A stretch of 64,000 nt of DNA, taken from the IMG/VR virus record IMGVR_UViG_3300047678_000069, positions 1,942 to 65,941 of that record; one strand, written 5' to 3'. This document shows positions 12,141 through 56,565 of this stretch, one piece after another. Source of the DNA: a virus (lineage: Duplodnaviria > Caudoviricetes). Position 1 is the stretch's first letter; each line of letters opens with the position of its first letter. Under the pieces are notes generated by a model. That model made no database searches. It had not been told where the DNA came from and worked only from the letters and a program-made list of their open reading frames with translations. The translations under genes were made by a program, and so were the position numbers.

Positions 12141-12167
12141 TCAGCCCCTCACAATCTGACGCAACTG

Positions 12168-12198
12168 AAACCCCGGTATAAACCACCGGGGTTTCTTT
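12168..12198 (+). terminator. Terminator, likely bidirectional
   Basis: GAAACCCCGGT/ACCGGGGTTTC stem between convergent genes. Confidence 0.8.
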
Positions 12199-12218
12199 AC
12201 GTACTCGATTGAACGCTG

Positions 12219-12971: not shown

Positions 12972-13134
12972 GGTTGGGCTTTCTTAGTTGTGTTTTCGGT
13001 TGGAACAAGAGCTTTGGCTGGCTCGCTGTGGCGTTTGGTTTAGGTTGGCTCTAGGTTGGGTCGGGTTGGCGATTATCGGCGATTGTGGGGCCTTCTAGGG
13101 GCCTTCAGCGTGGTATTTTGGGCAAGGTTTGGGC

Positions 13135-14079: not shown

Positions 14080-14457
14080 TTGATCTTCTCCGGATGTGTT
14101 GGTTGAAAGGATGAAAAATTGTGTCCAGATCCCCATGCCAAGGCCATTGTGCATCTTGACGGCGATGACTGGTTTCGCTCTGCAGAGACAGTGGTAGTAC
14201 AGTGTACCGTCTCTGGAATCGATTTTCAAGGTTGGAAAGTGTTCGGTGTCGGGGTTGAACATGTGCTCTTTGAAGCAAGAGCCGCAGCGTACTTTGATTT
14301 CACTCATCTTGATTAGTCCTAATGGGTTTGAATTCTCGAACCAGAAAGTGGGAATCAACAGATGTTTTGATCCACTCACAAACTGATTGTTCTGTGTCTG
14401 TCCAACAATCAGATCCTTCTGTTCCATGCTCCAACATCTGTTGCTTCGTTGGTGTGG

Positions 14458-40614: not shown

Positions 40615-41718
40615 TTAAGAGAGAAGTGATAGAGCGTCAAACGATTCACCGGGGAATGATTCAGCCAACGGATGTCGATTGTTCCCCATAGATGAGACTA
40701 TACCTGTATGCTGAACAAGTGAGGGATTGTGAACATACTCGAACCAACCTGAAAGCTTCATTGTGTCTGAGATACCTCCATCGATTGATCGGTGTCCTCG
40801 TTCTGGATCCTGCATCTTGTCTAATAGAAAACGATGAGCCAACAGAGTTTTGACTCCTTCAGCAGTGAAGACAAGAGCAACAGCCCCTCTGCCATTTTGA
40901 TTCGACATATAAAGTCCAGTATAGCCAGTTGGACAAATACTTTGGTTGCTTGGGAATGTGTAGAGGTTAAGGTATCCCTTATCCGGGAAGCTCACATTGT
41001 CAAGGTAGGCTTTCAGATTCCGCACAGTAACGAAATCATCCTGAAAGATTGCGTAACGATCCGCATGAGGTTTTCTGATGTAGAGTTCATACAGAGTCAG
41101 TATCCAATGTCCGGCTGTTCTGATATGGTCCCTGAACGTCACAGGATGCCCTAGGACGCGATATGAGGCTTCATGCTGTGTTTCAGACGCATCGACAAAC
41201 AGACGCGGTTCTGAGAAGCCTGCGAGCTTCAGAGAATCGAGCGTCTGAGGGAGTGTCGTCTCAAGTCTTGACGGAACAGTCGTAACACCGTAGCTCCATA
41301 TCAATGATCTCAACTGAGTTTCCGCAGACTTTACTGGGGAAGAGAGGCCAGTGATCGAAGTGAACATGGCAGCAGCGTCCTTCAGCGTGCCTTGCACAAC
41401 TCTTGAGGCCCATGAACCAAGCTGATTCAGTTTCTCCTGACGTTCAGCACAACCGCACTCTTCACCAAGCCAGTCTGAAACAAGCTCCTTTGTGATTCCG
41501 ACACTACTTAGAGCAGCGGATACATGATCTCCCAATCCTTTCGAGGGCGGATCAGATTGAGGCGAATGATTGACTGGATGATTCTTTGAGACTACCGCCA
41601 GAATCTCATCAACTACAGTTCCCTGTCCGCTTCGACACTTCATCCAGAGTACAGGGTGAAGAGATCTGGCTCTGACTGTACAGTAACCGGCTATTGGACA
41701 ATTACACTTCGTGGTCAT
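40615..41718 (-). CDS. Cys-rich N-terminal domain fused to a glycosyltransferase (GT25-like)
   Basis: KGLGD...CGCAERQEKLN domain, then AIFQDDF and PSLVQHTG. Confidence 0.78.
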   Translation of the reverse strand: MTTKCNCPIAGYCTVRARSLHPVLWMKCRSGQGTVVDEILAVVSKNHPVNHSPQSDPPSKGLGDHVSAALSSVGITKELVSDWLGEECGCAERQEKLNQLGSWASRVVQGTLKDAAAMFTSITGLSSPVKSAETQLRSLIWSYGVTTVPSRLETTLPQTLDSLKLAGFSEPRLFVDASETQHEASYRVLGHPVTFRDHIRTAGHWILTLYELYIRKPHADRYAIFQDDFVTVRNLKAYLDNVSFPDKGYLNLYTFPSNQSICPTGYTGLYMSNQNGRGAVALVFTAEGVKTLLAHRFLLDKMQDPERGHRSIDGGISDTMKLSGWFEYVHNPSLVQHTGIVSSMGNNRHPLAESFPGESFDALSLLS

Positions 41719-43124
41719 AATCCTGAATCTCCCACATCCAGATAAACTTTGCTCGGAAGAGTTGAAGGACCTCCGAATACTCCTGTATTGGTAGTTGATC
41801 TAGTTCTATAGTCAAAGGTCAGGGGTAATTCAACTTCGCCTTCTTCAGAACAGGCAACATTTCGAGACCACTGAGCTATCAGTCCATTAAATTGTCCGAG
41901 ACCGTAAGGTCCAAAGAACGGCCATATGTCAAAGATCCCAAACTTAGACATTCCCGGCAGCACAGAGAACACGTCTGGGGTAATCCGGTCCTTGATCTTG
42001 AACTTCCCCTCTTGGTATGACTCAGGATAATTCAATGAGACTGTGTTATTGGGGTATGTATATCCGAAGATGGTTGAATAGTAATTTGGATAGAACTGGG
42101 TTGTGTAGTTTACTATTGTGGTGTCGTTAGATCCGAAAATAGATGCCTGACCAAAGACCGGCTGTGGATTAGTGAAGTTGCCGATATTTGAGCAGAGGCC
42201 GGGGCGAACATACAGAGACACTGACCATCGAGGATGTACCACCCAGAAGTATCCACAGAGTTTAGCTGACGCCAGATAGTAGGCGTGGGCATAGGTTTCT
42301 GGGTAAGGCTCTATGGGATCTAAATTTCTGTTGCCGGGGACTGCATTTGAAGGATGTCCCATGAGGAATCTAGGGTCCAGTCCGTTGACTAATGCCTCAG
42401 AAGTTCTGGGAACTGATCTGAATCCATCGATGTAAACTATATTGCGGTTGTTGATGTCATTGAGAACATAGAGGTTGTCATCAAGATTGGAATCAGCCAT
42501 CTGCACTTCACCGCTCTGCTCAGAGAACGGATGCACGACATAGAACCTTTGCTTCCAAGCCCTTGCAGGCGGATTGCTTAAATACTGTATGGAATACTGT
42601 CTCCAGTTAGGATTTGGAGGATAAGGGTCAAGCGTCACAACGTCATTATTCCATATGCTCCACGGCATCTTCATATTAGCGATGGAGGTCCAAGTACATT
42701 CAGGGGCAGTCCCCTTTGTAAGATAACTGGCAAGATGTTTGACCTGATAGTTCAGTCCTGTGGGTACATCAGGATGGGTTCTATTAGCTTCCAGATCAAT
42801 GTAAGTAGTCTTGGTTCCAGTTGCAGGATTAATGACATAGAGTGGGTGAGTGTAAGACCCTGACTTGGAGCCCGACTCTGTTTTACTGAGAAGAGTAGAC
42901 GGGACTGCATGAGCACCCAATGCTGAATGCAGTCTCAGATTCATCGCTGCTGGATAGCCTGCAGGACGATTGACGTTGGTGCATCCATGACACTTGTAGA
43001 CAGGTGGCATCTTCACAGGATAGACGCAGGCACGACAGGGGCCAATATCCTGCTCTGGCATAACTTCATTCAGGCAGAGGGGACGCCAATATTTCTTGTC
43101 TTCTGTGAACAGGTAGTCTGGCAT
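41715..43124 (-). CDS. Probable tail/receptor-binding protein
   Basis: Last gene of the tail module; aromatic/Asn/Pro-rich; Cys-rich N-terminus. Confidence 0.55.
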   Translation of the reverse strand: MPDYLFTEDKKYWRPLCLNEVMPEQDIGPCRACVYPVKMPPVYKCHGCTNVNRPAGYPAAMNLRLHSALGAHAVPSTLLSKTESGSKSGSYTHPLYVINPATGTKTTYIDLEANRTHPDVPTGLNYQVKHLASYLTKGTAPECTWTSIANMKMPWSIWNNDVVTLDPYPPNPNWRQYSIQYLSNPPARAWKQRFYVVHPFSEQSGEVQMADSNLDDNLYVLNDINNRNIVYIDGFRSVPRTSEALVNGLDPRFLMGHPSNAVPGNRNLDPIEPYPETYAHAYYLASAKLCGYFWVVHPRWSVSLYVRPGLCSNIGNFTNPQPVFGQASIFGSNDTTIVNYTTQFYPNYYSTIFGYTYPNNTVSLNYPESYQEGKFKIKDRITPDVFSVLPGMSKFGIFDIWPFFGPYGLGQFNGLIAQWSRNVACSEEGEVELPLTFDYRTRSTTNTGVFGGPSTLPSKVYLDVGDSGL

Positions 43125-43152: not shown

Positions 43153-43443
43153 CTATGGACAATCACATGGAACATCAAGAACCGTATAGATGGGGTATGA
43201 CCCTGTTGGAGGTACAGGTGAGCCGCCGTTTGTACAGTGATCTTCAATCATGAAGAACACAAAGCTATCCCACACCCACTTAGAAGTACCACATCCACCA
43301 GTTCCTGTTCCCGTTCCCGGCATTGAAACCGGAACAACACAAGCAAGGCACTGCTCACCATTGACTGATGTTTCAGGCTTTACTGTGTTTGTGCAGAGGG
43401 CTCTCCAATATTTCTTTGGAGACGAGAAAACCATTGTTGGCAT
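43153..43443 (-). CDS. Small Cys-rich tail-associated protein
   Basis: N-terminus paralogous to 41715-43124; GTGTGTGG linker. Confidence 0.6.
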   Translation of the reverse strand: MPTMVFSSPKKYWRALCTNTVKPETSVNGEQCLACVVPVSMPGTGTGTGGCGTSKWVWDSFVFFMIEDHCTNGGSPVPPTGSYPIYTVLDVPCDCP

Positions 43444-43445
43444 GA

Positions 43446-44210
43446 TTAGGTTCCTGCGATCAGATTGTTGGGCCAGTGTATTTCAAGTCGCATGTCAGGA
43501 GATGCAAGTGGGTCCCATTTGATGTAAGCTCCCGTGACTGTAAGTGTGACAGGGGCACCTAAGCTATCGAATCCGATTATCTGACTGCTTACGTTCTTTG
43601 ACCAGAAGCCATCTCCTGAATCATAATCAAGCCAATGTTCATCAGCAGGCAGAACTGTGACGCCATATGGCTCCTCGCTTTTCTTACTGTAAAGATTCGC
43701 GAGTGCAACCGCAACCCTTGAGGTGGTTTTCTCTCCCCCCACGATTATGTCGTATTCGGATTCCTTATAGCAGAAGCACCCACAGACTCCTGAAATGAGA
43801 GGAGTGGTTGAAGGGCCTGCAGCAGAAGCGGCGAGCCAAACACCGTCTTTCGTTCTCAGAACTACGATCCAAGTTTGTCCTGGAATGACATTCGTTGAGA
43901 TGTTGTATACCGTCTTGTCTGGTATGTCCATCGGAGTCAGATTGTTATCGATGATTCTCCAGATTTCACATTCAGCAGAACCTGGAGCATCCCCTGTTCC
44001 TGTTCCGGTTGATGTACCGGCTTGGATTGATAAAGGAGCAATTCCGTTCGATGGAGTCAGGGCAATATAAACCTCAGGAGTGAATTGATCGTCACCGGCA
44101 AGGAAGTTTGGATTCTTTGTGCCTAGGTTCTGTATTCTTTGGAGTTCGGATGAAACAACCTGTTTGATCAGGGCCATATCCGTATCAGTGAGTAAATTCA
44201 GTTTAGCCAT
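43446..44210 (-). CDS. Putative minor tail protein
   Basis: Position in the tail module; GTSTGTGTG tract. Confidence 0.6.
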   Translation of the reverse strand: MAKLNLLTDTDMALIKQVVSSELQRIQNLGTKNPNFLAGDDQFTPEVYIALTPSNGIAPLSIQAGTSTGTGTGDAPGSAECEIWRIIDNNLTPMDIPDKTVYNISTNVIPGQTWIVVLRTKDGVWLAASAAGPSTTPLISGVCGCFCYKESEYDIIVGGEKTTSRVAVALANLYSKKSEEPYGVTVLPADEHWLDYDSGDGFWSKNVSSQIIGFDSLGAPVTLTVTGAYIKWDPLASPDMRLEIHWPNNLIAGT

Positions 44211-44214
44211 TTTA

Positions 44215-44661
44215 TCACTCTGGGATTAAGGTTGTTGTGCAACGTGTAGAACCGTATGAGCTTCGAAGCTTCATTGACTTGAAATCAGCGAATGGAAACC
44301 TTGCCGATTCTCCTGCTGGGATGAAGATGACCGGCGAAGCGTCTCCAAATGAGATTTCAATCACATGGAGTTTGTCGGCATTCTCAGCAGGCGGCATTAC
44401 CCCAAGTTCAATATCTGAATCAACACTGAGTTGAACCTGAGGGGCAGGGATGTGACGATTCTGAATCACGATGAGAGAACACTTCTCAAGCCATCCTGCT
44501 TGAAATGGAACCTTTTCCTCAGTGAGAAAGAAGGTTCTTTGAAAAGGCTGTTCCTCAGTAGTGAGGTATCGTGAATAACCAAGCTTGATTTCAAACGTCT
44601 CTTCAGAAGGACGCTGATGGTATACTGTGTCTGAGACCGTTACCCTGAGATCGTGATTCAT
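44215..44661 (-). CDS. Hypothetical protein (tail region)
   Basis: 148 aa, beta-rich. Confidence 0.6.
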   Translation of the reverse strand: MNHDLRVTVSDTVYHQRPSEETFEIKLGYSRYLTTEEQPFQRTFFLTEEKVPFQAGWLEKCSLIVIQNRHIPAPQVQLSVDSDIELGVMPPAENADKLHVIEISFGDASPVIFIPAGESARFPFADFKSMKLRSSYGSTRCTTTLIPE

Positions 44662-44675
44662 TGCGGCGAATCTTT

Positions 44676-45647
44676 CTATAATGAGGAGGGGATGCCGAGA
44701 GAAAGAAAGTTGGACTCTGGATAGTATTCAATTTTGAGTTGATGCAGGGATTCACCGACACCTGTACCTGTCTGTGGAATACCTAGCGGTTCACCTGCAC
44801 CGTTCAGAGGAAGCCTGATCGGATTGCCTGCTCTGTCAATTGCTTTGATGAAGTGTCTTGGATTATTCTTGTCAGGAGCACTTCCGCCGATCTTGTCAAG
44901 AGTCCAGTTTCCTGTAAGCTTATCCCAATGCCCGTTCAATACCTTGTTCCCCTCATCGACAACGTATCGATCAAAGGTCTTGGCATCGATATCAAACTCG
45001 AATGTTCTGGTATAGTAGTATGTACAGGTTCCATACAACTTACGTTCCCAGTTTACATTGCTGAGTTTGACACACCGCCGAGACATCCCCCACAATGTAG
45101 AGTCATTGACAGTGTCAATCATATTAGCAAACGTCGACAGCCCAAGGGAGGTTACATTCTGTCCAATCTTGACTGTCGGCCTGTTTGCATCGAATTCAAC
45201 CTGTTGTCCCTGAAACGGCTCCCATGAGGATGAACGAATGACTGCACCAAAACGGTTGTAGGTCGCCTCTTTGGTGTATTTCGTGAATGATCCGCTAAGC
45301 TGTTGAGGCTCGCTGAGTGGATCAGATATAGTTGAGGTTTGGCATCGACTGAGAGGCTTTGTTGAAAACTTCTGATCGACTCTCCAAAACCTGACCCACT
45401 CTCCTTCTTTGATTTCAGGGGCTCGACTGATTTTCATATAAGGATAGCAGAATGCCCAAGTGTCATTGTCGTTTCCGAAATTCCACGTTGAGCCTACTGC
45501 AGGCAATCCTGACGCCATCATCACTGTATATGGACCGTCATTCTTGCTTGACGTTTCAACAAGGTGGGTAACCGTGAAGGTTCTATGTCCTTCATCATCA
45601 CGCTCACCTTCCCAAACTCTGATGCCTGTCTTCACTGTTGCCGTCAT
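44676..45647 (-). CDS. Putative distal tail/hub protein
   Basis: Directly follows the tape measure gene. Confidence 0.65.
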   Translation of the reverse strand: MTATVKTGIRVWEGERDDEGHRTFTVTHLVETSSKNDGPYTVMMASGLPAVGSTWNFGNDNDTWAFCYPYMKISRAPEIKEGEWVRFWRVDQKFSTKPLSRCQTSTISDPLSEPQQLSGSFTKYTKEATYNRFGAVIRSSSWEPFQGQQVEFDANRPTVKIGQNVTSLGLSTFANMIDTVNDSTLWGMSRRCVKLSNVNWERKLYGTCTYYYTRTFEFDIDAKTFDRYVVDEGNKVLNGHWDKLTGNWTLDKIGGSAPDKNNPRHFIKAIDRAGNPIRLPLNGAGEPLGIPQTGTGVGESLHQLKIEYYPESNFLSLGIPSSL

Positions 45648-47950
45648 TATGCTCCCCCGATATTCGAAATGCCAATCATGTCAAAGAAGCCTTTGCCCTT
45701 CTCACGACCTTGGGCAACAAGTTCAGTTAGATTCTCAACCATAGTCTCAAACAGAGGTTTGTTGTCGGCACTGTTCGCGTTTGGATTCTTCGGAGTCTGG
45801 ATTGTCATTTTGTCACGATAAGCCGCAATGACATCATAAGCCTTCGTGGTTCCGGCAGCGACTGCATCGATAGCCCCCACAGCTCCTTTGACCCCACTTG
45901 TGAAAGCTTCCCCCATCTTCATTCCGGTTTCAGTTGCTCTATCAAATGTTGCTGGGGAAATGATCGGAGCAACATATTCGTCCCATATATCGGTTCCCAT
46001 TTGTGCGAATCCGAATATTCCAGTACCTCCGACTTTACGATTATCAACTGCATTCTTTGCAGCTTTCTGAGCGTCTTCCCAAGCTTTACGTGCAGCTTCA
46101 CCGGGGGCAGAAGCCTTTTTGAGGGCCTCTTCTCGCATGACCTCATTTTCAGCTTGAAGATCACGATAATATTTTCGAGTTTCCTCTAGTGTCTTATTCG
46201 CAGCAGTAGCGTCGATGGTAGGCATCTTCCACTTATCCGGCATCACCGCGTTGAAGCTTTCAATCAGCCAGTTCATTGATTCAATGATATTCACTACCAT
46301 CTTGTCAAATGTTTCACCAAGTGCCGATTGTAATCCTATCCATACACTAGCGATGAATGATTTTGTCTTGATCCACCCGGATTCAATATCCACAAGCATC
46401 GAAGTCCAAAGGTAACTCACTGAAGTGGTGATAACTTTCCAAGCTAATTCAAATTCACCATTCTTAATGAGGTCTACTACTAAGAGAAATTGATCCCCGA
46501 TGAATTTAAACGCAGATTGAAGTTGATTTGCAGCCCATGCCCCGATATTGGTGAATTTATTCAATCCATAAGCTGCGGCTGTGATGCCAGCAATGATCAA
46601 TCCAAGAGGGCTAAATACTGCGGCAAGGATTGGAATCAACCCTGCGATGACAGCACTTGCAGAGGTGAACCCAATAACAGCTAACTTCACAGCCGCTGCA
46701 ATTCCAGCCCATAGAACTAGAAAATCAGCGTTATCTACAACCCATTCGGCAATAGAAGCCCCGACACTCACAATGGTATTCCAGAAGCTTGTGAGATAAG
46801 GAATTACTGATCCAACTTCACGTCGGATTGTCGAGAAAGCGTCTTGAAGAATCGGGGTTACAGCTCCAATTGTTGAAGAGGCGACTGAATAGATACCGGA
46901 AAGAAGTGGGGAGATGTATGTTTGGAATAAGTCAGAAATCATATTCAGTCCCCACATCACCTTAGGGACAATCCATCTAATAACATTTCCAAAAGCGTTG
47001 CTAATGACTGGCCCCCACACTTCAACTGTCTTAATGACACTTTTCAATGTACTTCTAATGTCAAGTTTTTCAATTAACACTGCACCCATCTTGGTGACTT
47101 CTAGTTTTATAGTGTCAGCAAGAGTTGACCAAAGACCGAATACAGTATTCGATTGCTTCTCCATCATATTGAAGAATTTCCCGCCGGGTCCACTTGCTGA
47201 GATGAAGGCTTGCTCAACCATTTGGGCAGAGATTCGACCAGCTTCCATTTCAGTTTTCAGTTGAGCAAGGCTCTTGCCGGAGGTCCGTGCCATTTCCTGA
47301 AGAGGATTGAATCCCCAATTGATCATCTGCAACAGGTCCTGACCCATCAGGCGTCCTGCTGCCTGTGTCTGTGAGTAGGCGTAGGCAAGTCCGTTGAGTT
47401 TATTCTGGTCACCTGCTGCAACGTCTCCGAGGGCTTTCAGCGTTGGCATGATCTTGTTTTGAGCGACTCCGAAGTTCAACATCATCTGAGCAGCAGAGCG
47501 AAGCCCAGGCATCTCAAATGGTGTTTTCGCTGCAAAGTCATTCAGTTCTGCCAGCATCTTCTTGGCAGCACTTGCTGAACCCAACATGACCTCAAATGAG
47601 ATAGCTGATTGTTCAGCTTCTGCGGCGAGCTTCATCGCATATCCACCACCTGCGATACCGCCAGCAATCCCACCGACTCCCATCAATCCCGCTGCGGCAC
47701 CTGCTCCGACAGAACCGAGCCCCATTGCTGTAACGGCTCCGGCTTTATTAACAAGTCCACTCAGAGCTGAAGCGGCTGAAGCAGCGTATCCCTTCACCTT
47801 TGAAGTCAGACTTTGGATTGTACTTGCGTGACGTTCAATCTGTGTGGCAGTCTTTTGAGAGTAGGAAGCAGCCTGCTGCATCATTGAGCGATAGCTGCTT
47901 CCATCTCCAACCAGACTGACGACCAGACGTTCTACTTCTGTGCCTGTCAT
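45647..47950 (-). CDS. Tail tape measure protein
   Basis: FEVMLGS...FAAKTPFE...LGDVAAG...GRLMGQDLLQM tape-measure domain; Ala-rich helical composition. Confidence 0.93.
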   Translation of the reverse strand: MTGTEVERLVVSLVGDGSSYRSMMQQAASYSQKTATQIERHASTIQSLTSKVKGYAASAASALSGLVNKAGAVTAMGLGSVGAGAAAGLMGVGGIAGGIAGGGYAMKLAAEAEQSAISFEVMLGSASAAKKMLAELNDFAAKTPFEMPGLRSAAQMMLNFGVAQNKIMPTLKALGDVAAGDQNKLNGLAYAYSQTQAAGRLMGQDLLQMINWGFNPLQEMARTSGKSLAQLKTEMEAGRISAQMVEQAFISASGPGGKFFNMMEKQSNTVFGLWSTLADTIKLEVTKMGAVLIEKLDIRSTLKSVIKTVEVWGPVISNAFGNVIRWIVPKVMWGLNMISDLFQTYISPLLSGIYSVASSTIGAVTPILQDAFSTIRREVGSVIPYLTSFWNTIVSVGASIAEWVVDNADFLVLWAGIAAAVKLAVIGFTSASAVIAGLIPILAAVFSPLGLIIAGITAAAYGLNKFTNIGAWAANQLQSAFKFIGDQFLLVVDLIKNGEFELAWKVITTSVSYLWTSMLVDIESGWIKTKSFIASVWIGLQSALGETFDKMVVNIIESMNWLIESFNAVMPDKWKMPTIDATAANKTLEETRKYYRDLQAENEVMREEALKKASAPGEAARKAWEDAQKAAKNAVDNRKVGGTGIFGFAQMGTDIWDEYVAPIISPATFDRATETGMKMGEAFTSGVKGAVGAIDAVAAGTTKAYDVIAAYRDKMTIQTPKNPNANSADNKPLFETMVENLTELVAQGREKGKGFFDMIGISNIGGA

Positions 47951-48297
47951 TGGTCTTTCTTTCCGCCGAGTCTGGCGATCCATAGCTGTAGGGATTCATC
48001 TGACATTTCGTCAAGCTCTTTTCGAGTCAGCTTCCGTTGTATGACCGGCTTTGGAGATTTGAATTCAATCTTCATGTCGGATACATTGGTCTTCTTCGAG
48101 CCGCCTCTCTGAGCTTGTATCAGGGCTAATTGCATCATGTAATGATCAGAGCGAGAAGGACGATTCCATTCGCCCCTCATCCACTCTCTGATTACACGGA
48201 ATTCCCTGACGGACATACGTCTACGAACTTCACTGGGAAGAAGTCCGAATAGAGCTGCTACCTCTATCCAAGGTCCGTAGACTTCTGAGCGTTTTTT
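47947..48297 (-). CDS. Tail assembly chaperone extension (G-T), reached by -1 frameshift
   Basis: The -1 frame is open from the slippery AAAAAAC through MSVREF to the stop at 47947. Confidence 0.8.
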   Translation of the reverse strand, partial: KKRSEVYGPWIEVAALFGLLPSEVRRRMSVREFRVIREWMRGEWNRPSRSDHYMMQLALIQAQRGGSKKTNVSDMKIEFKSPKPVIQRKLTRKELDEMSDESLQLWIARLGGKKDQ

Positions 48298-48731
48298 AGT
48301 CGATCCTGATCTTCAATCAGTTTCTTCTTACGCTCTTCCAGTCGGGCGATTTCCTTGTCAATCGACTCAATCGTTTCTTCTTCGTTGTCCAGTTCACTGA
48401 TCTCCTTGATCTTCACCGCAAGACCTGTGATGGTCTTAGGCTTGAACTGGTTTCGAACGTGGTCAATGTGTACTCGCTTTCCGGCCTGAGGGCCTTCAGC
48501 GTGGTACAGACACAGGGAAACGAGAATCGGTTCAACGTCAGCGAGATTTTTCATCGCTGTAGGTCGACCATCCGGCCCCATTGTGGTTCGGTCGAGAATC
48601 GCGTTGCGATAGTGGCACGCCGCATCGCCGTTCGCTTCACGAATCTCGAACTTCTCCCCAGCAATAATGACGGGGACCACAACAGGACCGGATGAGTCTT
48701 CTTCAAATACAAGGGTTTCAGCTTGTGACAT
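48264..48731 (-). CDS. Tail assembly chaperone
   Basis: Between the tail tube and tape measure genes; slippery site near the 3' end. Confidence 0.82.
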   Translation of the reverse strand: MSQAETLVFEEDSSGPVVVPVIIAGEKFEIREANGDAACHYRNAILDRTTMGPDGRPTAMKNLADVEPILVSLCLYHAEGPQAGKRVHIDHVRNQFKPKTITGLAVKIKEISELDNEEETIESIDKEIARLEERKKKLIEDQDRLKNAQKSTDLG

Positions 48732-48782
48732 TGTTTCGCTCCAAACATATCGGTGAATAGAAATGAAATTACATTAGATGGA

Positions 48783-49265
48783 CTAAGTACCTGTTCCGCT
48801 TGCGGCTGTGTAGACGAAGCTTTCTTCAATGCCAGTCGTCAGGTCACGCATCGTTGGAGTGATCGTGACAGTTCCTTCAGGCATTTCGCCGATGGACTGG
48901 TCACCTGCTTCGAATGAACGAAGACCGCCGAAGAAGGCAATCTTGGAACCGTTCGGGAATGTGATTGTGACTGTGGTTTCAACATTGATCAGGGCTTTGA
49001 CCTGAGCATAGGCTGTTCCCTTATAACCTACAGTCATGGTAGACTCAGTCAGTTCCTTGAGAGTCTGGAAAGCTTTCGTTCGCCATTCGATGTTGTGCAT
49101 CGTGGTCACGTCGATTGCTTCACCGCCATCAAGTCCCGGAGGCTTGACAGACTTCTCCCAAAGCTGGATGCTCGCATTCGCTGCGAACGTAATCAGGGTT
49201 CGATAACCGTCTTTGAAGAACTTACCTGAGGGAGTAGTTCTGTTTGTGGCTACTGGTGCCGTCAT
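48783..49265 (-). CDS. Major tail tube protein
   Basis: IDVTTM...TVTITFPNGS.IAFFG lambda gpV-like pattern; gene position. Confidence 0.85.
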   Translation of the reverse strand: MTAPVATNRTTPSGKFFKDGYRTLITFAANASIQLWEKSVKPPGLDGGEAIDVTTMHNIEWRTKAFQTLKELTESTMTVGYKGTAYAQVKALINVETTVTITFPNGSKIAFFGGLRSFEAGDQSIGEMPEGTVTITPTMRDLTTGIEESFVYTAASGTGT

Positions 49266-49275
49266 TTCAATTTCC

Positions 49276-49716
49276 TTAGATCATTGTGAGGGTTAGAACA
49301 GCGTTCAAAGTGAACAAGTGACGCTTGGACTGACTGACAGCCTTTCCTGCGTCGATTGTTTGTGATGTTCTGGTAACGGCTTCAACCATGTAAGTGTTCA
49401 AACCAATCGTCACCAGTGTTCTTCTGAAGACAGTGTCCAGAATGTTTTCAATTAAAAGGGCTCGTGTTCTCGCGGTTTGATGATCAATGCCTCGCACTCT
49501 GATTTGAATGCCGGGATATTCGACCATCTCACCTGTGACTTGAATCCGACCTTGGAATTTTCCTGCTGTGTCATAGATCGTGATGCAGTTGTCTGGCAGA
49601 TCAGGTTCATTGCTAATGTAGATCGGCCAGACACCATTTACTGAGGGAAGAGAACCGCCAGAGGATGCGATCAACGCATAACGAAGAATATCGGCAGGGG
49701 TGTGTGGTAGATTCAT
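49276..49716 (-). CDS. Tail terminator protein
   Basis: PDNCITIYDT...PGIQIRVRG; gene position. Confidence 0.8.
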   Translation of the reverse strand: MNLPHTPADILRYALIASSGGSLPSVNGVWPIYISNEPDLPDNCITIYDTAGKFQGRIQVTGEMVEYPGIQIRVRGIDHQTARTRALLIENILDTVFRRTLVTIGLNTYMVEAVTRTSQTIDAGKAVSQSKRHLFTLNAVLTLTMI

Positions 49717-50066
49717 TTCTTCTCCAACGTCGTTTGAGCACTTGCCCTTAAAATACCAGTATCAACGGGAACCAATTTCTGAGACGCTGCCTGAAGCTTC
49801 AATCCGGCTTTGTAGAGAGCGGCCTCAACTGACATTCCCCGCTTAACATCCTCCCTTAGTCCCTGTTGGAGTTCCTTTCTCATCTCGCGGGCAGGTTGTT
49901 CCAAGAACTTCGCCTGCCCGCCGTTTGGATGAGACATGTCCAGATTTTCGTGTACGTGAACTGCATACTCAGCAGAGTACGAGACCACGACAGTCACATC
50001 TGGACGTTGTTGAGCCAGCTTCCTGAGAGTTCTTGCGATACTCCCTGATTTACTGATCCTTACCAT
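49713..50066 (-). CDS. Neck/tail completion protein
   Basis: YAVHVHE...GQAKFLEQP...VPVDTGILRAS. Confidence 0.8.
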   Translation of the reverse strand: MVRISKSGSIARTLRKLAQQRPDVTVVVSYSAEYAVHVHENLDMSHPNGGQAKFLEQPAREMRKELQQGLREDVKRGMSVEAALYKAGLKLQAASQKLVPVDTGILRASAQTTLEKK

Positions 50067-50334
50067 GTCTTGAGTCCACCGTTGATCTGAGTGACATTCT
50101 GTCCAAAGCTTTCTCGAATGAGTTAACAACTCTTTCAATCTGCTTGGTTTGTTCTGACTCCTGTTTCAGGACCAGTTCACTGATTGCTTTCCTCTCTTCC
50201 GGAATTAACAGTGTAGTTCCATAGTAGAGGCCGCCTGCAATCAAGGCGAGTTGCATGAAACTTATCACGTTGCTGAATGGCTGACCTTTGAACCAATGTA
50301 GCAACAGTTTCAATGATCCTTCTTCAAGCTGCAT
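50050..50334 (-). CDS. Membrane protein (holin-like)
   Basis: One TM segment followed by a coiled coil. Confidence 0.5.
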   Translation of the reverse strand: MQLEEGSLKLLLHWFKGQPFSNVISFMQLALIAGGLYYGTTLLIPEERKAISELVLKQESEQTKQIERVVNSFEKALDRMSLRSTVDSRHGKDQ

Positions 50335-50622
50335 TGTTTGGGTATATCCTATTCTTGAGCCAGTCGATGATCGAACGTTCAAACATCGAGATGAGAAAAC
50401 GTAAAATCCATGGAGACATATAAATCAAGATGGCTTCCACAAATTGTTGAGGGGTTTGAGACGGATCATAAACCTCCTTTGCTATGTCGACGATTCGCTG
50501 GATCTTCTTTTGCTTCTTGTCAATGGAAGATCTTAGCCTTGGATTTCTGGTTGAAGCATAAAGGCTCTGGGAGCAATTGTGAACTTCATAACAGGAAATT
50601 CTTAGACCAGTCCAGTCTGGAT

Positions 50623-50907
50623 TCATTTAGGCTTGAGCTCCAAGTCTATCGGAGAGTTATTGATGTTGATGTTTATGCCAGATCCAGACTTGGTGATCTC
50701 GGAGATTGTTGTGAGGATTCGAATGCCCGCAATTTTGGCTGAGACCTTTGCGGGAGGATCCAGAGTAACTTTTCCTTTGGAGATTGTTATAGTCTGGACA
50801 GGAGACAGGTCAAGAAGATTTTCTTCATGCTCGATCTTTCCCGTACTGAGCAAAGAGCTCAGCACCTTGAACAGTACGGGAGAGATGTTGATTTCACGAT
50901 CCAGCAA
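50623..50907 (-). CDS. Hypothetical protein
   Basis: 94 aa, AGGAG RBS. Confidence 0.55.
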   Translation of the reverse strand: MLDREINISPVLFKVLSSLLSTGKIEHEENLLDLSPVQTITISKGKVTLDPPAKVSAKIAGIRILTTISEITKSGSGINININNSPIDLELKPK

Positions 50908-50925
50908 TTGAAACTCCTTCAGAGC

Positions 50926-51597
50926 TCAGTTCGGGCACACTCCGCCGGGGCAGGATGAATAGAAGAATCTGGATCGTCCGCTTCGCCTTGTTGAGTATCG
51001 CTGTTGTTTCGGTGTTGAATAGGTTCTGACAGGCGAAGCCCTTGAAACTGTTTTCGAAGCCTTGGTTGAACTGTTGTGAGCATTGTCGTGGAGGATTTCC
51101 ATTTCCTTCATCGATAGGTTGTTGACTACGATGCCATGTTCTTTGAGATGCCTTTCAGCTTCTGTCGTTGACACGTTCCAATTACCTTCCCAATTCCATC
51201 TGGGACCGGGAAGTCTTTCGACGATTGATTCAGTGATTATGGTTCTGATGACGGGCTTTGGTGGATCCGGTTGTTTCAGCGGTTCTGGTTCTTGAACCTC
51301 TTTACTAGGGATCGGTTCTTCGGCTTTAGGTTCAGGTTCAGGTTTCGGCTGGAGATTAGTGACCGCTTCTTCAATGCGAGCAAGGATTTCTTTCTGCTCA
51401 TGGAAACCTGCTTTCGTGTCAGCTTGAATCGCCAGTTGAGTTTCTTTCAGAGCTCGTGCGAACGCTGCATCCTGAATCTTGGTCAGTGTTTCATCCTTGG
51501 TTTTTGTCAGATTAGTGTCGACGGGAGTGATACACGAACAGCCGATCATCGAGACAGAAGCAACAAGAATGAACAGTAACAAATTTTTGAATCTCAT
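50926..51597 (-). CDS. Putative lipoprotein
   Basis: Signal peptide with lipobox-like MIGC; C-terminal SSCPGGVCPN. Confidence 0.7.
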   Translation of the reverse strand: MRFKNLLLFILVASVSMIGCSCITPVDTNLTKTKDETLTKIQDAAFARALKETQLAIQADTKAGFHEQKEILARIEEAVTNLQPKPEPEPKAEEPIPSKEVQEPEPLKQPDPPKPVIRTIITESIVERLPGPRWNWEGNWNVSTTEAERHLKEHGIVVNNLSMKEMEILHDNAHNSSTKASKTVSRASPVRTYSTPKQQRYSTRRSGRSRFFYSSCPGGVCPN

Positions 51598-51610
51598 GGG
51601 ATTTGTTCCT

Positions 51611-52417
51611 TTACTTGAAGTAAGGGGAATTTGAATACCAATCTACTGGAGTGGCTTCTTGATTCCCCATCAAACCAATTGCGGCGGTGTTTCTGTGCTG
51701 GAGCATTTGTCTCCAAGCTTCTGGAGTGATTAGGTATGGGCCGTCAGCATGTGAATTCGCGGCACGAAGATTTCCATCTTTGTCATAGCCAAGAACGCAC
51801 ATAGCATGACCACCAAGGATCCTGTTTGAAGCTGGAGCAAACTTTCTGACGATTCGGTCTTTCGGGATCAGTCCGGAATACCATGAAATGCCAAACGAGA
51901 AGAAGCCACCACCACCAATGTAGTCAAGGCATTCATCATGGTCTTGAGGAACTTGCCAGATTGACTTTGCACGGTAAGCTTTTGCTGCCTCATAGTTTTC
52001 TGAGGAAAGGATCCTTGCTCGATCCATTTGACCGGGGTATGAACTTGGATATCCGGTGAGTTCTTCTTTCGGACAACCAACACCAACACCAATCTTTCCT
52101 CCGCCGGAAATTGTTGATCCACTGTCACGTCCAAGCAATCCGTCAATCTTTTGGGTTGCGAGATATGCAAAGATTTCTGACAGTTGAACACGTTCGCCTT
52201 TAACGAAGGCCAGACGTTCAAGTCCACTTGAAAGAGCATGACCCTGACATGAACCAATCTGACCTTGGTTTTCTGTTCGGTGCCATGAAATATCAACTTC
52301 TGCAGGGCGACTGAACGCTGACCACTCTGCAGTTTTCATTGGGGCTTGAGGCAGGTTGTACAGGAACATCCTGTTCTCAAGGTCGAGACGACAATTGTTA
52401 ACAGCGAAGTTGCTCAC
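51611..52417 (-). CDS. Papain-like C1 cysteine peptidase
   Basis: NQGQIGSCQGHA, GGHAMCVLGY, ANSH (Q/C/H/N catalytic set). Confidence 0.88.
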   Translation of the reverse strand: MSNFAVNNCRLDLENRMFLYNLPQAPMKTAEWSAFSRPAEVDISWHRTENQGQIGSCQGHALSSGLERLAFVKGERVQLSEIFAYLATQKIDGLLGRDSGSTISGGGKIGVGVGCPKEELTGYPSSYPGQMDRARILSSENYEAAKAYRAKSIWQVPQDHDECLDYIGGGGFFSFGISWYSGLIPKDRIVRKFAPASNRILGGHAMCVLGYDKDGNLRAANSHADGPYLITPEAWRQMLQHRNTAAIGLMGNQEATPVDWYSNSPYFK

Positions 52418-52782
52418 TTGTATTCCTTCAGAATCTTGGAATGAAGTTTCAGGTCATAGCCACCATTGGTTTCAAACGCTTTCTTTTCATTTGAAGCGAT
52501 GGTGTCAAAGGCAACTTTTCGCATTGCCTCTTGACCAGTAGCCAAGTGGTTCCACACTTCTGTTTCAGTTTTCAGTCCTCCTGAATCGATGAGATCAGCG
52601 GTGTCATGATTGTGTTTGATCCACAGTCGTTCGTAGTCATCGAACGCTTTTGAAACAACCTCGCTCGAGATTGGGTCTGGATCAGGTTTGGGGTTTGGTT
52701 TGTTGTCGTTGGTATTGATCAGCAATGAACCGATCAACGCCGCGATACCAGCGATGGTTCCGATCAGTTGTGTTCGGGTCAT
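52414..52782 (-). CDS. Membrane-anchored hypothetical protein
   Basis: N-terminal TM segment and PKPDPDP linker. Confidence 0.65.
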   Translation of the reverse strand: MTRTQLIGTIAGIAALIGSLLINTNDNKPNPKPDPDPISSEVVSKAFDDYERLWIKHNHDTADLIDSGGLKTETEVWNHLATGQEAMRKVAFDTIASNEKKAFETNGGYDLKLHSKILKEYK

Positions 52783-53297
52783 TTTGGTTCCTTGTTGTCA
52801 TCTGAAGTTTGTTTGTCGAACATAGTCCTTGAGGTTGCGATTTTGTTGCGGCTCAGGGCTTCGTTCAAGCGATCAACTTCAGCGTGCAAAACTTCGAGTT
52901 CACCCAGACCCTTGAGGATGTAAGAAATCTGGATTTCCGCTGGTGCGGTTGTACAGTTCTGAACAATCATCAGAGCATATGCTGCAGCTTGTGGGTTGCC
53001 AGCATTGCCGATCGGGTTTGCGGGGTTTTCGGGGTTGGTTGGTAATTGGGTTTCGTGGGGCTTCGGATTTTGCGTTTTAAGGGCTCTGGCTTGCGTTTTA
53101 AGGGCTTGCAAGTAGCCAAGCGTGGTTTTTACTGCCGGAATGGCAGCGAAGCTTGCAAGGGCCAGCAGAGAGCCAGCAAACAAAGCATATTTCAGCAGGG
53201 TTTGCGGGTTGGGTAATTGGATTGAAATTTCAGCGATTTGTGGCCACATGGCAGGTTCAGCCCCTTCCTGTCTTGTCAACAATTCCCCAGATGACAC
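52779..53297 (-). CDS. Membrane-anchored hypothetical protein
   Basis: TM segment; start uncertain. Confidence 0.55.
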   Translation of the reverse strand: MSSGELLTRQEGAEPAMWPQIAEISIQLPNPQTLLKYALFAGSLLALASFAAIPAVKTTLGYLQALKTQARALKTQNPKPHETQLPTNPENPANPIGNAGNPQAAAYALMIVQNCTTAPAEIQISYILKGLGELEVLHAEVDRLNEALSRNKIATSRTMFDKQTSDDNKEPK

Positions 53298-53427
53298 CGA
53301 TCAATGCAATGGTTCCGCCAACGATTGCCGTGGCAGTTCCTTCATCAGTGATTCCGGCTGAAACAGCGGCACCACCAAGAATAGTCATTACGTGTCGGAT
53401 GATACTGAAAACCATGTCCTTGTTCAT
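53257..53427 (-). CDS. Small two-TM holin-like protein
   Basis: SIIRHVMTILGG...IGVIWGIVDK pattern of small phage holins. Confidence 0.72.
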   Translation of the reverse strand: MNKDMVFSIIRHVMTILGGAAVSAGITDEGTATAIVGGTIALIGVIWGIVDKTGRG

Positions 53428-53441
53428 TGTAGAACCTCTCA

Positions 53442-53813
53442 TTAAACGTTTGTTGGAAGTGTGTCTGTGAAGCGGGTAAGGTTTGATGAATAACGTCGGG
53501 CACGTTGCTTGATGTCTGGAGTAACAGAGGATGTTGTGATTTGATACAGTTCAAGGTTCACTGCGGGTGATGGAAGATCACGAAGATTCCCACGCCATAG
53601 AATAGAACCAAGAACCATTGAGGAGTTCGTGATGATTGTGTCTGGTTTCGATTCGTTTGAGTTTTGGGATTCACCAGACACGCGAGTGAGGGTTGGCCAC
53701 TCCACGTCTATCTCTACTGGGGAAGAGACCGTGACTTGGTTGTAGTCGTCGACGCCAGCTTTCACCCACAAGACAGCTTTCAGTTTCTTTTCAACACGCT
53801 CAACTCTCGACAT
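53442..53813 (-). CDS. Head closure protein
   Basis: GVDDYNQ motif; gene position. Confidence 0.65.
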   Translation of the reverse strand: MSRVERVEKKLKAVLWVKAGVDDYNQVTVSSPVEIDVEWPTLTRVSGESQNSNESKPDTIITNSSMVLGSILWRGNLRDLPSPAVNLELYQITTSSVTPDIKQRARRYSSNLTRFTDTLPTNV

Positions 53814-54183
53814 TGGAATTTTCCGGTGGGTGGTCTCTCAGTGGTAATGTCTTGCCAGCGAATTCATGAGTACAGTCAGTAAGGTATTCAACTAATCCTC
53901 CGCGGATGAAAGTGTGACACTTCATGTCGACGCGGTGGCTGGTTCCGTCCGGGTCTTTCTTTGTGTAGTAACTGGTGGTCAGGATACTTGGTGAAAGTGT
54001 TGGCTTTTCAACGTCCATATTCCATGTCCACATTGGATGCATACCGGGGGTGTTCACCTTGATGTACTGTTCATGGAAATGTCCATGCATCAGCAAGTGA
54101 ATGTGGGTTGCGGTTTGTGGTGGGCAAGTGTCGAAGCGATTAGTGACAGGATTGTGAATGCAGGGGCGAGCCTTCATGACCAC
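53800..54183 (-). CDS. DUF6527-like protein
   Basis: WTWN.DVEKPTLSPSIL...CHTFIRGG.VEYLTDCTH.FAGKT. Confidence 0.75.
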   Translation of the reverse strand: MVMKARPCIHNPVTNRFDTCPPQTATHIHLLMHGHFHEQYIKVNTPGMHPMWTWNMDVEKPTLSPSILTTSYYTKKDPDGTSHRVDMKCHTFIRGGLVEYLTDCTHEFAGKTLPLRDHPPENSNVES

Positions 54184-54614
54184 ATCTCACGATAGATTGA
54201 AGTGTAGGATTCATACTCCTGTTCAGTCGAACCAATCCAAACCATTCCAAGGGTCTTCTTCCCACCATCTTTGATTTGTTGCTGGAGTTTTGCCAAATAC
54301 ATCGTGATATCCAACAACATAGCTGTTTGCCCATATTGTGTCGATTCGAACAGCATTCCGAATTGACCCTGAAAGCTTCCTGATGCACCGGATGTTGACT
54401 TTGAAGTTAGGAGTTGATCGCGGTGAGCGTACAAGTGGGCTGCAAGCCATGTTTCAATCTCCTTCAGATCATTGGCGTCCAACAGTCCTGTGTAATCGTT
54501 TGACGAGATCTTATTCACTAGAACACTGGCTGCTCTGATGAACGGGTTGACATCGATGTCTATATCTGTGCTGATTATGTCCCTTACTAAATCTTCAGTT
54601 GTTCTGATTGGCAC
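54174..54614 (-). CDS. Head-tail adaptor
   Basis: WLAAHL...STQYGQTAMLLD. Confidence 0.75.
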   Translation of the reverse strand: MPIRTTEDLVRDIISTDIDIDVNPFIRAASVLVNKISSNDYTGLLDANDLKEIETWLAAHLYAHRDQLLTSKSTSGASGSFQGQFGMLFESTQYGQTAMLLDITMYLAKLQQQIKDGGKKTLGMVWIGSTEQEYESYTSIYREMWS

Positions 54615-54721
54615 AGCTTTGTCCTCTTATAAAAACTGATCAGGGACTTACTAACAAATCTCTGATCAGTTGGTTTTCCTCGTTATGTGGGTCGGTTATG
54701 TGTGTCGACCGACGTGCAAAC

Positions 54722-55261
54722 TTAGATGCCTGCAGCAACCAATGTCTTGATGATTTCAGCTTTGAGTTTTGCAGAGCCGAGATCAACTTCGCATTCTTCA
54801 GCCAGCTTCTTCAACTGGTCGACGGTCATGTTCTCGAGTTCAGTCGTGTCCTTCGTTGGATCTGATTCATCACCTTCAGCATCGTCTTCAGTGTCGGCTT
54901 CACTTTCCTCAGAGGGAATTTGTTCCTGAGGGAAAGGAACACCGAGTTTTGGAAGAGCCAGTGGTTCAAGGTTCAGCGGATTGTTGCCGTCTTTGAAACC
55001 AGAGGTCGCAGCGGCCTGTACCTTGGCAGCGTTTGAGTCAGCGATGATTCCGGGGGGGAGTTTGTATTTGACTCGAGCGGTGTCGAGCAACCGTTCAAAC
55101 TTCAGTGAGCCGGGGGAGTTGTGCTTTGAAAGATCTTGTTCGGATTCGAATGTGTCGCCGGGAACGTAGACTACAAGTTCTTGAGATTCAGGATTGTTGG
55201 GATCGGTGCTTCGCGAAAAGGCGTGCTTTCCACGAAGAAGTTTCCACTTTGAAACAGCCAT
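54722..55261 (-). CDS. Hypothetical protein with a C-terminal Rho-N/HeH-like domain
   Basis: LENMTVDQLKKLAEE...KAEIIKTL. Confidence 0.7.
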   Translation of the reverse strand: MAVSKWKLLRGKHAFSRSTDPNNPESQELVVYVPGDTFESEQDLSKHNSPGSLKFERLLDTARVKYKLPPGIIADSNAAKVQAAATSGFKDGNNPLNLEPLALPKLGVPFPQEQIPSEESEADTEDDAEGDESDPTKDTTELENMTVDQLKKLAEECEVDLGSAKLKAEIIKTLVAAGI

Positions 55262-55291
55262 TGAGTTTGCTCCTTAGTGCATGTTTATCAA

Positions 55292-55342
55292 AAGAGAAAA
55301 GAAAATGACTGGGGGCTGAGGAGGACAACTCAACCCCCAGTC
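55292..55342 (-). terminator. Terminator after the major capsid gene
   Basis: GACTGGGGG/CCCCCAGTC stem with a U-rich tract on the minus strand. Confidence 0.75.
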
Positions 55343-55386
55343 TGACCAGTTGGATTACAACTGGGAGGGAAACTGATTGTGAAGAA

Positions 55387-56565
55387 CTATGATGTCGTTC
55401 CGTGACAGATACCACAGTTCCCGTTGAAGTCTGCCAGCAAGCGAGGCACTTGGATTGCGAGCACTTTGAAGTTGACTCGCATTCCGCCCTGTGATTCCCA
55501 CTGAACAGTCGTCGGTTCCATACCATTGATGGCCTGAGCAACGTCGCTGGTCATCTGGACCAAGAGCAGATTGAACGTTGAAGTGAAGAAGTCGAGACGA
55601 CGAACCGAACTGATGTTCTCGATGGACTGAAGACGCTGACGTAATGTCTGGTTGGGAGAGGTCATACCACTCGTGGCCAGAGCATAATAGTCATTGTCAA
55701 GGTAGCGATCCCAGTCCTTGCTGTGGTACAGCATGTATGGACCATAGCAACCTGCATCATAGAGAAGGTCACGCATTGCCAGAACTTGACCGACCGTGTC
55801 AGATGGTTTCCAGCCACCACCGGAAGGAGCAGTCACCGAAGTGTACGTGGCTCGTTCAGGGAAGTTGGTGTAACCGTAGACGGTTGGAGCTCGGCTGTAT
55901 TCCGTGGCTGCACCATAGGTGACGCCAGTGACCATGCCGATCAAGGTCTTTTCGATCTTTTCAGCGATTCTTCGACCGGCACGTTCTGCCTGACGAACAT
56001 CCAGACCAACACCTGAGTTTCGGGAGATTGTCAGACGACGCTGAGAAAACCAGAAGTCAGAGTGAGTGATTGGAAGTGGAGTTCCTTCAAGCTGGAAGCG
56101 AGTCGAATCACCACGACCTTCGGTCATTCCGTCCATGTCAACCTGAGCTTCACCACCATCAGATTCAGTTTCATATTCGAGGACCATCTTGCCCATCGCG
56201 TTGAAACCGCCGATCTGTGAAGCTGCCATCAGGTCGGTCCATGCACGTAATCGCTGGCGATACGCACGATGAACCTGACGATCGAGTTGAATCCATTCAT
56301 CCTTTCGGAGGGTCGTCGAGTTGATGACCGGAAGATCGATGTCACGATCACGAAGATCCTTGACAAGAACTTCTTCGTAGACTGGTTCAAACAAATTCGA
56401 CTTTGGGTTGAACTTGGTTCGGCCAGTGTTGACAGTACACTTTTTTCGACCATCAAGGTCGATGTACTGACGACGGAGACCAGTCTCATACCGAACGCCG
56501 GGTGTCGTGAAATCGACGCCGACTTCTCCGGGGTTGAGACTGTTGAGTACAAAGTCTGTAAACAA
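55387..56565 (-). CDS. Major capsid protein (HK97 fold, encapsulin/linocin-like clade)
   Basis: LRKDEWIQLD...PLPITHSDF...RRL; follows the scaffold and decoration genes and precedes a terminator. Confidence 0.88.
   Translation of the reverse strand: MFTDFVLNSLNPGEVGVDFTTPGVRYETGLRRQYIDLDGRKKCTVNTGRTKFNPKSNLFEPVYEEVLVKDLRDRDIDLPVINSTTLRKDEWIQLDRQVHRAYRQRLRAWTDLMAASQIGGFNAMGKMVLEYETESDGGEAQVDMDGMTEGRGDSTRFQLEGTPLPITHSDFWFSQRRLTISRNSGVGLDVRQAERAGRRIAEKIEKTLIGMVTGVTYGAATEYSRAPTVYGYTNFPERATYTSVTAPSGGGWKPSDTVGQVLAMRDLLYDAGCYGPYMLYHSKDWDRYLDNDYYALATSGMTSPNQTLRQRLQSIENISSVRRLDFFTSTFNLLLVQMTSDVAQAINGMEPTTVQWESQGGMRVNFKVLAIQVPRLLADFNGNCGICHGTTS

Follow-up and report, generated by a model that had tools for sequence, protein, structure and literature searches.

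This report concerns the late region of an uncultured tailed phage, in which short runs of alternating glycine and threonine (Gly-Thr motifs) in tail proteins lie close to a cluster of glycosyltransferase genes. The DNA analysed, 'the window', is a stretch of 64,000 nucleotides that spans bases 1942–65941 of the 65,941-nt IMG/VR virus record IMGVR_UViG_3300047678_000069 (CheckV completeness 92%); the G+C content of the lineage is 44–50%. The structural genes are all on the minus strand, and form a siphophage structural operon that runs from position 64000 down to ~41700. Its genes encode, in order, the portal (Phage_portal_3), a Mu F-like head protein, the capsid, a tail terminator and the tail tube. 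Two chaperone-sized genes follow, then the tape measure (TMP_3) and four or five proteins that belong to no family. The tail-fibre genes are followed immediately, on the strand of this late operon, by the cassette: three GT-A glycosyltransferases, two S-adenosylmethionine (SAM) methyltransferases and a radical SAM enzyme, which bears out an earlier note, made from the window alone, that had placed glycosyltransferases next to the motifs. The main features are collected in Table 1. With moderate confidence, we read them as a virion O-glycosylation system resembling that of mycobacteriophage Che8, in which C-terminal -GT and internal (GT)n sequences would be the acceptor sites.

Table 1. Motif-bearing structural genes and cassette genes of the window.
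Feature	Position (strand)	Residues	Gly-Thr motif or C-terminus	Other characteristics
Major capsid protein	55387–56565 (-)		ends HGTTS	DUF6260; phrog_771
Tail tube protein	48783–49265 (-)	160	ends ..YTAASGTGT; GTGT codons 48786–48797	
First gene after tape measure (place of distal tail protein)	44676–45647 (-)	323	TGTG, 44760–44771	motif in variable loop
Tail or fibre-region protein	43446–44210 (-)	254	AGTSTGTGTG; TGTGTG, 43992–44009; ends IAGT	
Small Cys-rich fibre-like protein	43153–43443 (-)	96	PGTGTGTGG; GTGTGTG, 43297–43317	
Fibre-like protein	41715–43124 (-)	469	no Gly-Thr run	anchor as in the 43153 protein
GT25-like GT-A glycosyltransferase	40615–41718 (-)			domain at residues ~136–367, behind Cys-rich N-terminal part
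Radical SAM enzyme	39613–40599 (-)	328		Pfam Radical_SAM, 4e-7
Class I SAM methyltransferase	38948–39613 (-)			Pfam Methyltransf_23, 2.5e-15
SAM methyltransferase, Methyltransf_24 type	38361–38972 (-)			Pfam Methyltransf_24, 2.4e-7
GT2-like GT-A glycosyltransferase	37555–38364 (-)	269		WDADIVF motif
GT2-like paralogue	36800–37552 (-)	250		match to profile of 37555 family, E 1.3e-78

The five Gly-Thr motifs listed in the earlier note all stand in the translated genes of the window where it had put them. Runs of the form (GT)n or (TG)n, with n of at least 2, occur only five times in the six frames of the 64 kb: four in minus-strand tail genes, between 43297 and 48797, and the fifth in a plus-strand frame of 68 codons that holds no gene. 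Shuffling of residues within proteins (1000 shuffles for the window; 200 for the window plus 14 whole relatives) measures how unusual this is. The 29 structural open reading frames (ORFs) of the window contain four runs versus 0.59 expected, a number reached in 2 of the 1000 shuffles, and the 60 other ORFs contain none versus 0.32 expected. When the 14 relatives are included, 380 structural ORFs contain 56 runs versus 10.7 ± 3.3 (shuffle maximum 20), and 951 other ORFs contain 10 versus 6.9 ± 2.6. The motif is thus enriched approximately 5-fold in structural genes, and not elsewhere. Our ORFs come from a greedy longest-ORF script and our module borders from anchor genes; this home-made calling is a weakness, yet one unable to produce a five-fold effect. 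The runs are biased towards the C-terminal fifth of proteins, a count that takes in some non-genic frames.

We give hardly any credence to the idea that the motifs are products of chance or of DNA slippage, devoid of meaning. A few long runs (in relatives L025 and L041) do have periodic codons and look partly expanded by slippage, but the shuffles reject chance, and motif positions are conserved across proteins that are 40–50% identical. The 47 distinct runs with n of at least 3 use all four glycine and all four threonine codons, in mixed order, so that it is the peptide, rather than a DNA repeat, on which selection acts.

The tail tube gene lies between the tail terminator and the chaperones and tape measure, as in gpV-like siphophages. 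A model of the protein (29 sequences; predicted local distance difference test, pLDDT, 71) matches the tube domain of lambda gpV and the YDC107 tail tube (Foldseek E 3e-6 to 5e-6, prob 1.0), and it is from this fold that we take its identity. Among 50,697 cultured-phage records (INPHARED), tblastn finds no match to the tube protein, nor to the GT25-like domain or the GT2-like enzyme of the cassette. Relatives of the tube protein number 27 in the database beyond the window protein itself, and we drew further ones from IMG/VR, as the best 80 of 175 stretches that encode relatives. One of these 80 runs off its contig. Of the remaining 79, 55 end in -GT (AGT 23, SGT 14, TGT 8, PGT 8, EGT 2), and the others, among which L060 is counted, end mostly in -GTD, -GTP, -GS or -GTT. 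The doubled GTGT end is a minority form, common only to the closest relatives of the window. What is conserved is an extension of 4–6 residues that ends x-G-T-COOH. In phages that lack the GT25-like enzyme the tube ends directly after the conserved ..VETAPVF strand, without extension, and so the x-V-x-G-T part is a tail of 4–6 residues added to the tube protein. The earlier proposal that GTGT is the sequon thus has partial support, from enrichment and from co-occurrence with an enzyme (see below); but GTGT itself may not be the sequon, the unit conserved on the tube being x-G-T-COOH.

In lambda gpV, an Ig-like domain that points outward comes after the tube domain. The window tube shares the fold of the gpV tube domain but has no C-terminal Ig-like domain, and carries the short -GT tail there instead. 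Because the fold is of the gpV type, the C-terminus of the window tube should face the outside. We also considered -GT as a general C-terminal tag on many virion proteins, and rejected it: seven of the nine -GT ends among structural genes belong to the tube, and outside the tube such ends are sporadic (terminator, connector, fibre).

The other runs lie in proteins downstream of the tape measure. The 44676 protein, for which neither Pfam nor PHROG gives a match, carries QTGTGVG at residues 292–298 of 323. In an alignment of 23 homologues, approximately 10 have Gly-Thr motifs in the same loop, after LNGxGxP, and 8 of 46 homologues have a run. In relatives (e.g. L012:8220–8666 and L050:15094–15531), the gene directly after the 44676-type gene encodes a tail protein of ~145 amino acids with an EY-GTGTGT-TG loop that is conserved in position; we find it at 76 loci, but neither in the window nor at any of the 11 loci that lack the GT25-like gene. 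The 43446 protein is conserved in its N-terminal part and variable in its C-terminal parts, and 17 of its 28 homologues contain (GT)n runs of 4 to 21 residues. In the 43153 protein, the run sits between an N-terminal anchor and the Cys-rich end. The first 42 residues of this protein are shared with its 469-residue neighbour, which has no family match (22 of 42 identical, 52%; E 9e-12), a pattern expected of alternative fibres that dock at one site.

The major capsid protein probably does not belong with these. Its HGTTS end, counted as a Gly-Thr motif in the earlier note, is not a repeat but the conserved terminus of a capsid family. Of 15 capsid homologues in the loci, 11 end CGI.H[GA]TT[SATV], and in nine of these S or A follows HGTT or HATT. 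Capsids of relatives that lack the GT25-like enzyme end GIVHGTHA (two), GIVHGSV, GICHGS and GTAHMRTA, with HG[TS] in four of the five. Since the HG[TS] core is a feature of the family, independent of the enzyme, the capsid end cannot be counted as a motif with the evidence at hand, and we rejected it as part of the tag system.

Pfam names only the two methyltransferases and the radical SAM enzyme of the cassette; the glycosyltransferases emerge from structure and profiles. The GT25-like domain is modelled as a GT-A fold with a pLDDT of 91.9, and has at least 500 GT-A fold matches at E <0.001. Among solved structures, POMGnT1 comes first (E 2.4e-8), with COLGALT1, LH3, mimivirus R699, GalNAc-T2 and GnT-I also matched; several of these best matches (POMGnT1, COLGALT1, LH3 and GalNAc-T2) glycosylate proteins or glycoproteins. 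COLGALT1, a GT25 enzyme, and POMGnT1 share with the window enzyme the GT-A fold with its DxD and act on proteins or protein-bound glycans, but TM-scores are 0.56–0.61, identity is 13%, and the acceptors differ. Related clusters in the Atlas are named GT25, which serves as a lead only. Within this family, which has >1,400 database members, FQDD (a DxD-type motif), the His downstream of QDD and PSLVQH are all invariant. A sequence search of the PDB with the GT25-like profile gives nothing, and the same search gives only weak matches for the radical SAM and GT2-like proteins. The 37555 protein has Atlas feature scores of 0.99 to phage clusters that are automatically named 'glycosyltransferase family protein' or 'hypothetical protein'. 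The first three of these clusters have no Pfam family in common; the fourth is named 'glycosyltransferase family 2', with PF00535 in 18% of its members. The Atlas structure rows reach the bar for PF00535, the direct match to PF00535 is weak (E 0.0076), and one of the 270 homologues is named glycosyltransferase family 2 by NCBI. In relatives, the GT25-like domain occurs fused to a unit of Methyltransf_24 plus GT-B, to GT-B alone, or to radical SAM; in P0168, for example, it is joined to a radical SAM domain, and in L158 to Methyltransf_24. In view of these fusions, the cluster most likely works as one glycan-building pathway.

The make-up of the cassette mirrors that of known mycobacteriophage systems. 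In the literature, Cluster O phages are described as carrying an O-methyltransferase gene followed downstream by three glycosyltransferase genes, which modify capsid and tail tube proteins (PMC11600133), and Che8 gp110 and Corndog gp38 as two glycosyltransferases essential for capsid glycosylation (PMC12363180). In our Pfam searches, Che8 gp108 is a GT2 enzyme plus TylF/Methyltransf_24, gp109 is GT2-like and gp110 is Glyco_transf_25 (32.3 bits, cut-off 24); Corndog gp35 is TylF/Methyltransf_24, gp37 is GT2-like and gp38 is Glyco_transf_25 (24.5 bits). Both phages thus combine GT25-type and GT2-type enzymes with a TylF/Methyltransf_24 methyltransferase, a combination that the window mirrors with its GT25-like and GT2-like enzymes and its Methyltransf_24 methyltransferase. 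When aligned with gp110 alone by hhalign, the window GT25-like family gives E 0.0082 and a probability of 5%; against a six-sequence profile of the gp110 family, E falls to 4.9e-4, and the 105 aligned columns bring FQDD/LEDD and PSLVQH/PSLVDH into register. Che8 gp108 and gp109 have no profile similarity to this family. Among viral fold matches (BFVD), Gp87 of Mycobacterium phage Ardmore stands at rank 2. From these alignments, it is likely, although not established, that the window GT25-like enzyme is homologous to Che8 gp110.

The termini are alike, too. According to the earlier note, mycobacteriophage virion glycans are attached at C-terminal hydroxy amino acids of capsid and tail tube proteins. 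The C-terminus is ..VVFNKTGS in the Che8 capsid and ..AEQYSDGS in the Che8 major tail protein; the presumed Corndog capsid and tube, annotated as hypothetical and assigned by us from place and size, end ..PLVGS and ..IKGDS. Comparison of these subunit ends with those of the window (..SGTGT and ..HGTTS) shows that the last residue of these capsid and tail-tube subunits is Ser or Thr in all three phages, and that ends made of Gly and a hydroxy amino acid are common to them. The systems differ in several respects. The tube protein, the GT25-like domain and the GT2-like enzyme of the window have no BLAST-level similarity to any cultured phage; the tag is Thr-based, and (GT)n runs also stand inside distal-tail and fibre proteins; and the cassette includes, in addition, a radical SAM enzyme and one more methyltransferase. 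In INPHARED, 734 cultured-phage records encode relatives of Che8 gp110, including those of 35 Gordonia, 11 Escherichia, 7 Klebsiella and 6 Serratia phages, and virion glycosylation may extend beyond the actinobacteriophages among cultured phages as well.

Within the lineage, the GT25-like enzyme is encoded almost universally and counts as a core gene. Its profile matches 25 of 27 tube-family records (12 of 13 of those with completeness of at least 90%) and 21 of 28 further records reached via the gene after the tape measure, 46 of 55 in total. In every case the gene stands on the strand of the fibre genes, a few kb further downstream, and it is restricted to phages: 185,579 species genomes yield four matches, all on contigs of 37–74 kb. 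These four (L253–L256) come from metagenome-assembled genomes labelled Opitutaceae, Caulobacter and Dehalococcoidia, and are likely phage contigs that were binned with them, for which reason the labels are unreliable as hosts. The GT2-like enzyme is rarer (8 of 27 tube-family records), and all genomes with the radical SAM gene have it too (5 of 5: the window, G004, G007, G013 and G021).

The motif tracks the GT25-like enzyme, and is nearly lost where the enzyme is absent. We scored 149 loci, excluded 72 in which the contig was too short to give enzyme status, and were left with 73 for which enzyme status and both marker proteins were known, or 50 phages after near-identical pairs had been merged. 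The tube ends in -GT in 27 of the 43 phages with the enzyme and in none of the seven without; G[TS] occurs among the last five residues of the tube in 37 of 43 versus 1 of 7; and at least one run occurs in the tail region in 38 of 43 versus 2 of 7, with means of 2.4 and 0.3 runs, respectively. Fisher p-values for these tube-end and run traits range from 0.0004 to 0.002, uncorrected for descent. The earlier note would have taken persistence of the motifs in relatives without the glycosyltransferases as a refutation; the few relatives without this enzyme have no -GT tubes and few runs. Three of them, G016 and G042 (both 100% complete) and G039 (86%), yield none of the three kinds of glycosyltransferase for which we searched; the tube termini are ..FTPAP, ..FVAHA and ..VFTP, and their tail regions contain 0, 1 and 0 runs. 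A further tube-alignment search for enzyme-less relatives added 18 loci; among these was no further complete genome that lacks the enzyme.

Descent tempers these numbers. On a quick IQ-TREE tree built from the tube protein, trimmed of its 10 C-terminal residues, together with the next marker protein, the seven enzyme-less phages (five in one clade, G016 close by, and L183, whose sister is L203) amount to three changes, two of them forced by well-supported branches. With 2–3 independent contrasts a sign test is unable to reach significance, and the Fisher values overstate the evidence. This is the first of several points that weigh against O-glycosylation of the motifs. In the L183/L203 pair, neither tube carries the tag. 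Among the 43 enzyme-bearing phages are six whose tube ends lack G[TS] and five that lack runs altogether. The runs have no extended flanking consensus beyond small residues, as is true of plain linkers; C-terminal -GT is largely confined to the tube; and the capsid keeps its conserved end whether the enzyme is present or absent. The hhalign probability against the gp110 family is only 32%, and the window enzyme falls below the threshold of PF01755 (Glyco_transf_25) and matches no Pfam family at E up to 1. Finally, the case as a whole is an argument from sequence.

Alternatively, the Gly-Thr runs could be ordinary flexible linkers, and the -GT end a structural terminus of this tube subfamily. 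The cassette would then act on host envelope glycans, for receptor masking or phage exclusion, or on a soluble sugar, and its association with the motifs would reflect shared descent. Such an explanation, which we consider unlikely, accounts well for runs that vary from 4 to 21 residues, lie between domains and lack a flanking consensus, for the small number of independent contrasts, and for the enzyme-bearing phages whose tubes lack the tag. The GT25 family also includes lipooligosaccharide galactosyltransferases. The explanation accounts less well for the enzyme-less relatives, which possess the same kinds of tail proteins and yet have two runs in seven phages, or for an enzyme that is a core, phage-restricted gene of the late structural operon. 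Nor does it explain why the cassette matches that of Che8 and Corndog, or why the ends of the Che8 glycoproteins look like those of the window.

Virion proteins might, of course, be glycosylated at residues other than the Gly-Thr motifs, which would then be bystanders. The capsid and other proteins offer further Ser and Thr residues, and other acceptors do seem to exist in the group. In the fibres of some relatives (L148, L151, L160, L003 and L026), poly-Thr or poly-Ser/Thr tracts accompany genes for PF00535-type GT2 enzymes; the L160 tube ends PTTTT. Such tracts number five in G003 and two in G011, versus one in 14 other genomes. G028, G029 and G032, which lack the GT25-like gene, have two GT2 genes each at the same place, and fibres full of poly-Thr. 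Poly-Thr and PF00535-type GT2 may constitute a second pair of tag and enzyme. In the window itself, the structural module contains no poly-Thr or poly-Ser/Thr tract, and the Gly-Thr motif tracks the GT25-like enzyme specifically; we judge the bystander explanation to be improbable, and return to the motifs as the likelier acceptors.

A role for the cluster in DNA modification can be weighed in the same way. The window encodes a candidate thymidine hypermodification set at 8894–14427 on the minus strand, consisting of a 5-hydroxymethyldeoxyuridine (5-hmdU) DNA kinase (13135–14427), an FkbM methyltransferase (12219–12971), a thymidylate-synthase-like enzyme (10141–11481) and a MazG-like protein (8894–9601), and the phage DNA probably contains a modified thymine. 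Radical SAM enzymes take part in pathways of this kind, and the cassette could in principle belong to this one. But the cluster lies 20 kb away from the kinase, in the structural operon, and six of the 14 whole relatives that have the GT25-like gene, three of which are 100% complete, have no 5-hmdU kinase. We regard a DNA role as very improbable, and protein glycosylation as the better account of the cassette.

How might such a system work? What the analysis shows is a set of motifs enriched in structural genes, enzymes with glycosyltransferase folds, and the co-occurrence of the two; that protein is the target, that these threonines are the sites, which enzyme acts first and which sugar it uses are all inferred. 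Late in infection, the soluble cassette would draw on cytoplasmic nucleotide sugars and build a short, partly methylated glycan. The GT25-type enzyme, or the whole set, would attach this by O-linkage to the threonines of exposed Gly-Thr sequences, the GT25-type enzyme either starting the O-linked glycan or extending it. The acceptors would be the C-terminal x-G-T-COOH of the tube (GTGT in the window) together with the (GT)n loops and linkers of distal-tail and fibre-region proteins. Extension of the glycan would fall to the GT2-like enzymes, and tailoring of its sugars to the methyltransferases and, perhaps, to the radical SAM enzyme.

A parallel comes from a quite different quarter. Chlorovirus PBCV-1 glycosylates its capsid with its own enzymes, one of which, A064R, combines glycosyltransferase domains with a methyltransferase domain. 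As proposed for the window, PBCV-1 directs soluble GT-A enzymes and sugar methyltransferases, partly fused, at its own structural proteins; it differs in being a eukaryotic virus, in having N-linked capsid glycans, and in having no known short peptide tag.

More speculatively, a C-terminus composed of Gly and a hydroxy amino acid, and likewise (Gly-Thr)n loops, might be the portable sequon of a phage-restricted, GT25-type O-glycosyltransferase. This would explain the -GS ends of Che8 and Corndog, and would be orthogonal to the pair of poly-Thr and PF00535-type GT2; phages would swap such pairs to re-coat their tails. We advance this broader scheme tentatively, and with more doubt than conviction.

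As far as we have found, phage-encoded virion glycosylation has been demonstrated only in a few mycobacteriophages. A full-text literature search, mostly without subscription journals, found no paper that describes the Gly-Thr motif or this phage lineage, and passages of PMC12494034 and PMC13419713 contain nothing about sites of glycosylation. Our findings suggest that a large lineage of uncultured phages has a related cassette among its core features, and point to an acceptor element that is very short and testable. The logic would be that of Che8, with a key enzyme that is probably related; what differs is the lineage, the tag, which is shorter and of another kind, and the extra enzymes. If the proposal is true, it supplies a minimal peptide tag and a soluble enzyme for O-glycosylation in the cytoplasm. 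It also supplies a rule by which glycan-coated phages can be predicted from sequence, one that bears on host recognition, on the stability of particles, and on immune recognition of therapeutic phages.

Two further features of the structural operon deserve mention. Adjoining the portal gene, at 62872–63873, is a gene for a 333-amino-acid protein with a run of 11 glycines and no family match. And within the operon, at 50926–53297 on the minus strand, lies a possible lysis-type set: a protein with a lipoprotein-like signal (50926–51597), a peptidase-like protein (51611–52417; phrog_16701), and two small proteins (52414–52782 and 52779–53297) that appear, by eye only, to be of the membrane type.

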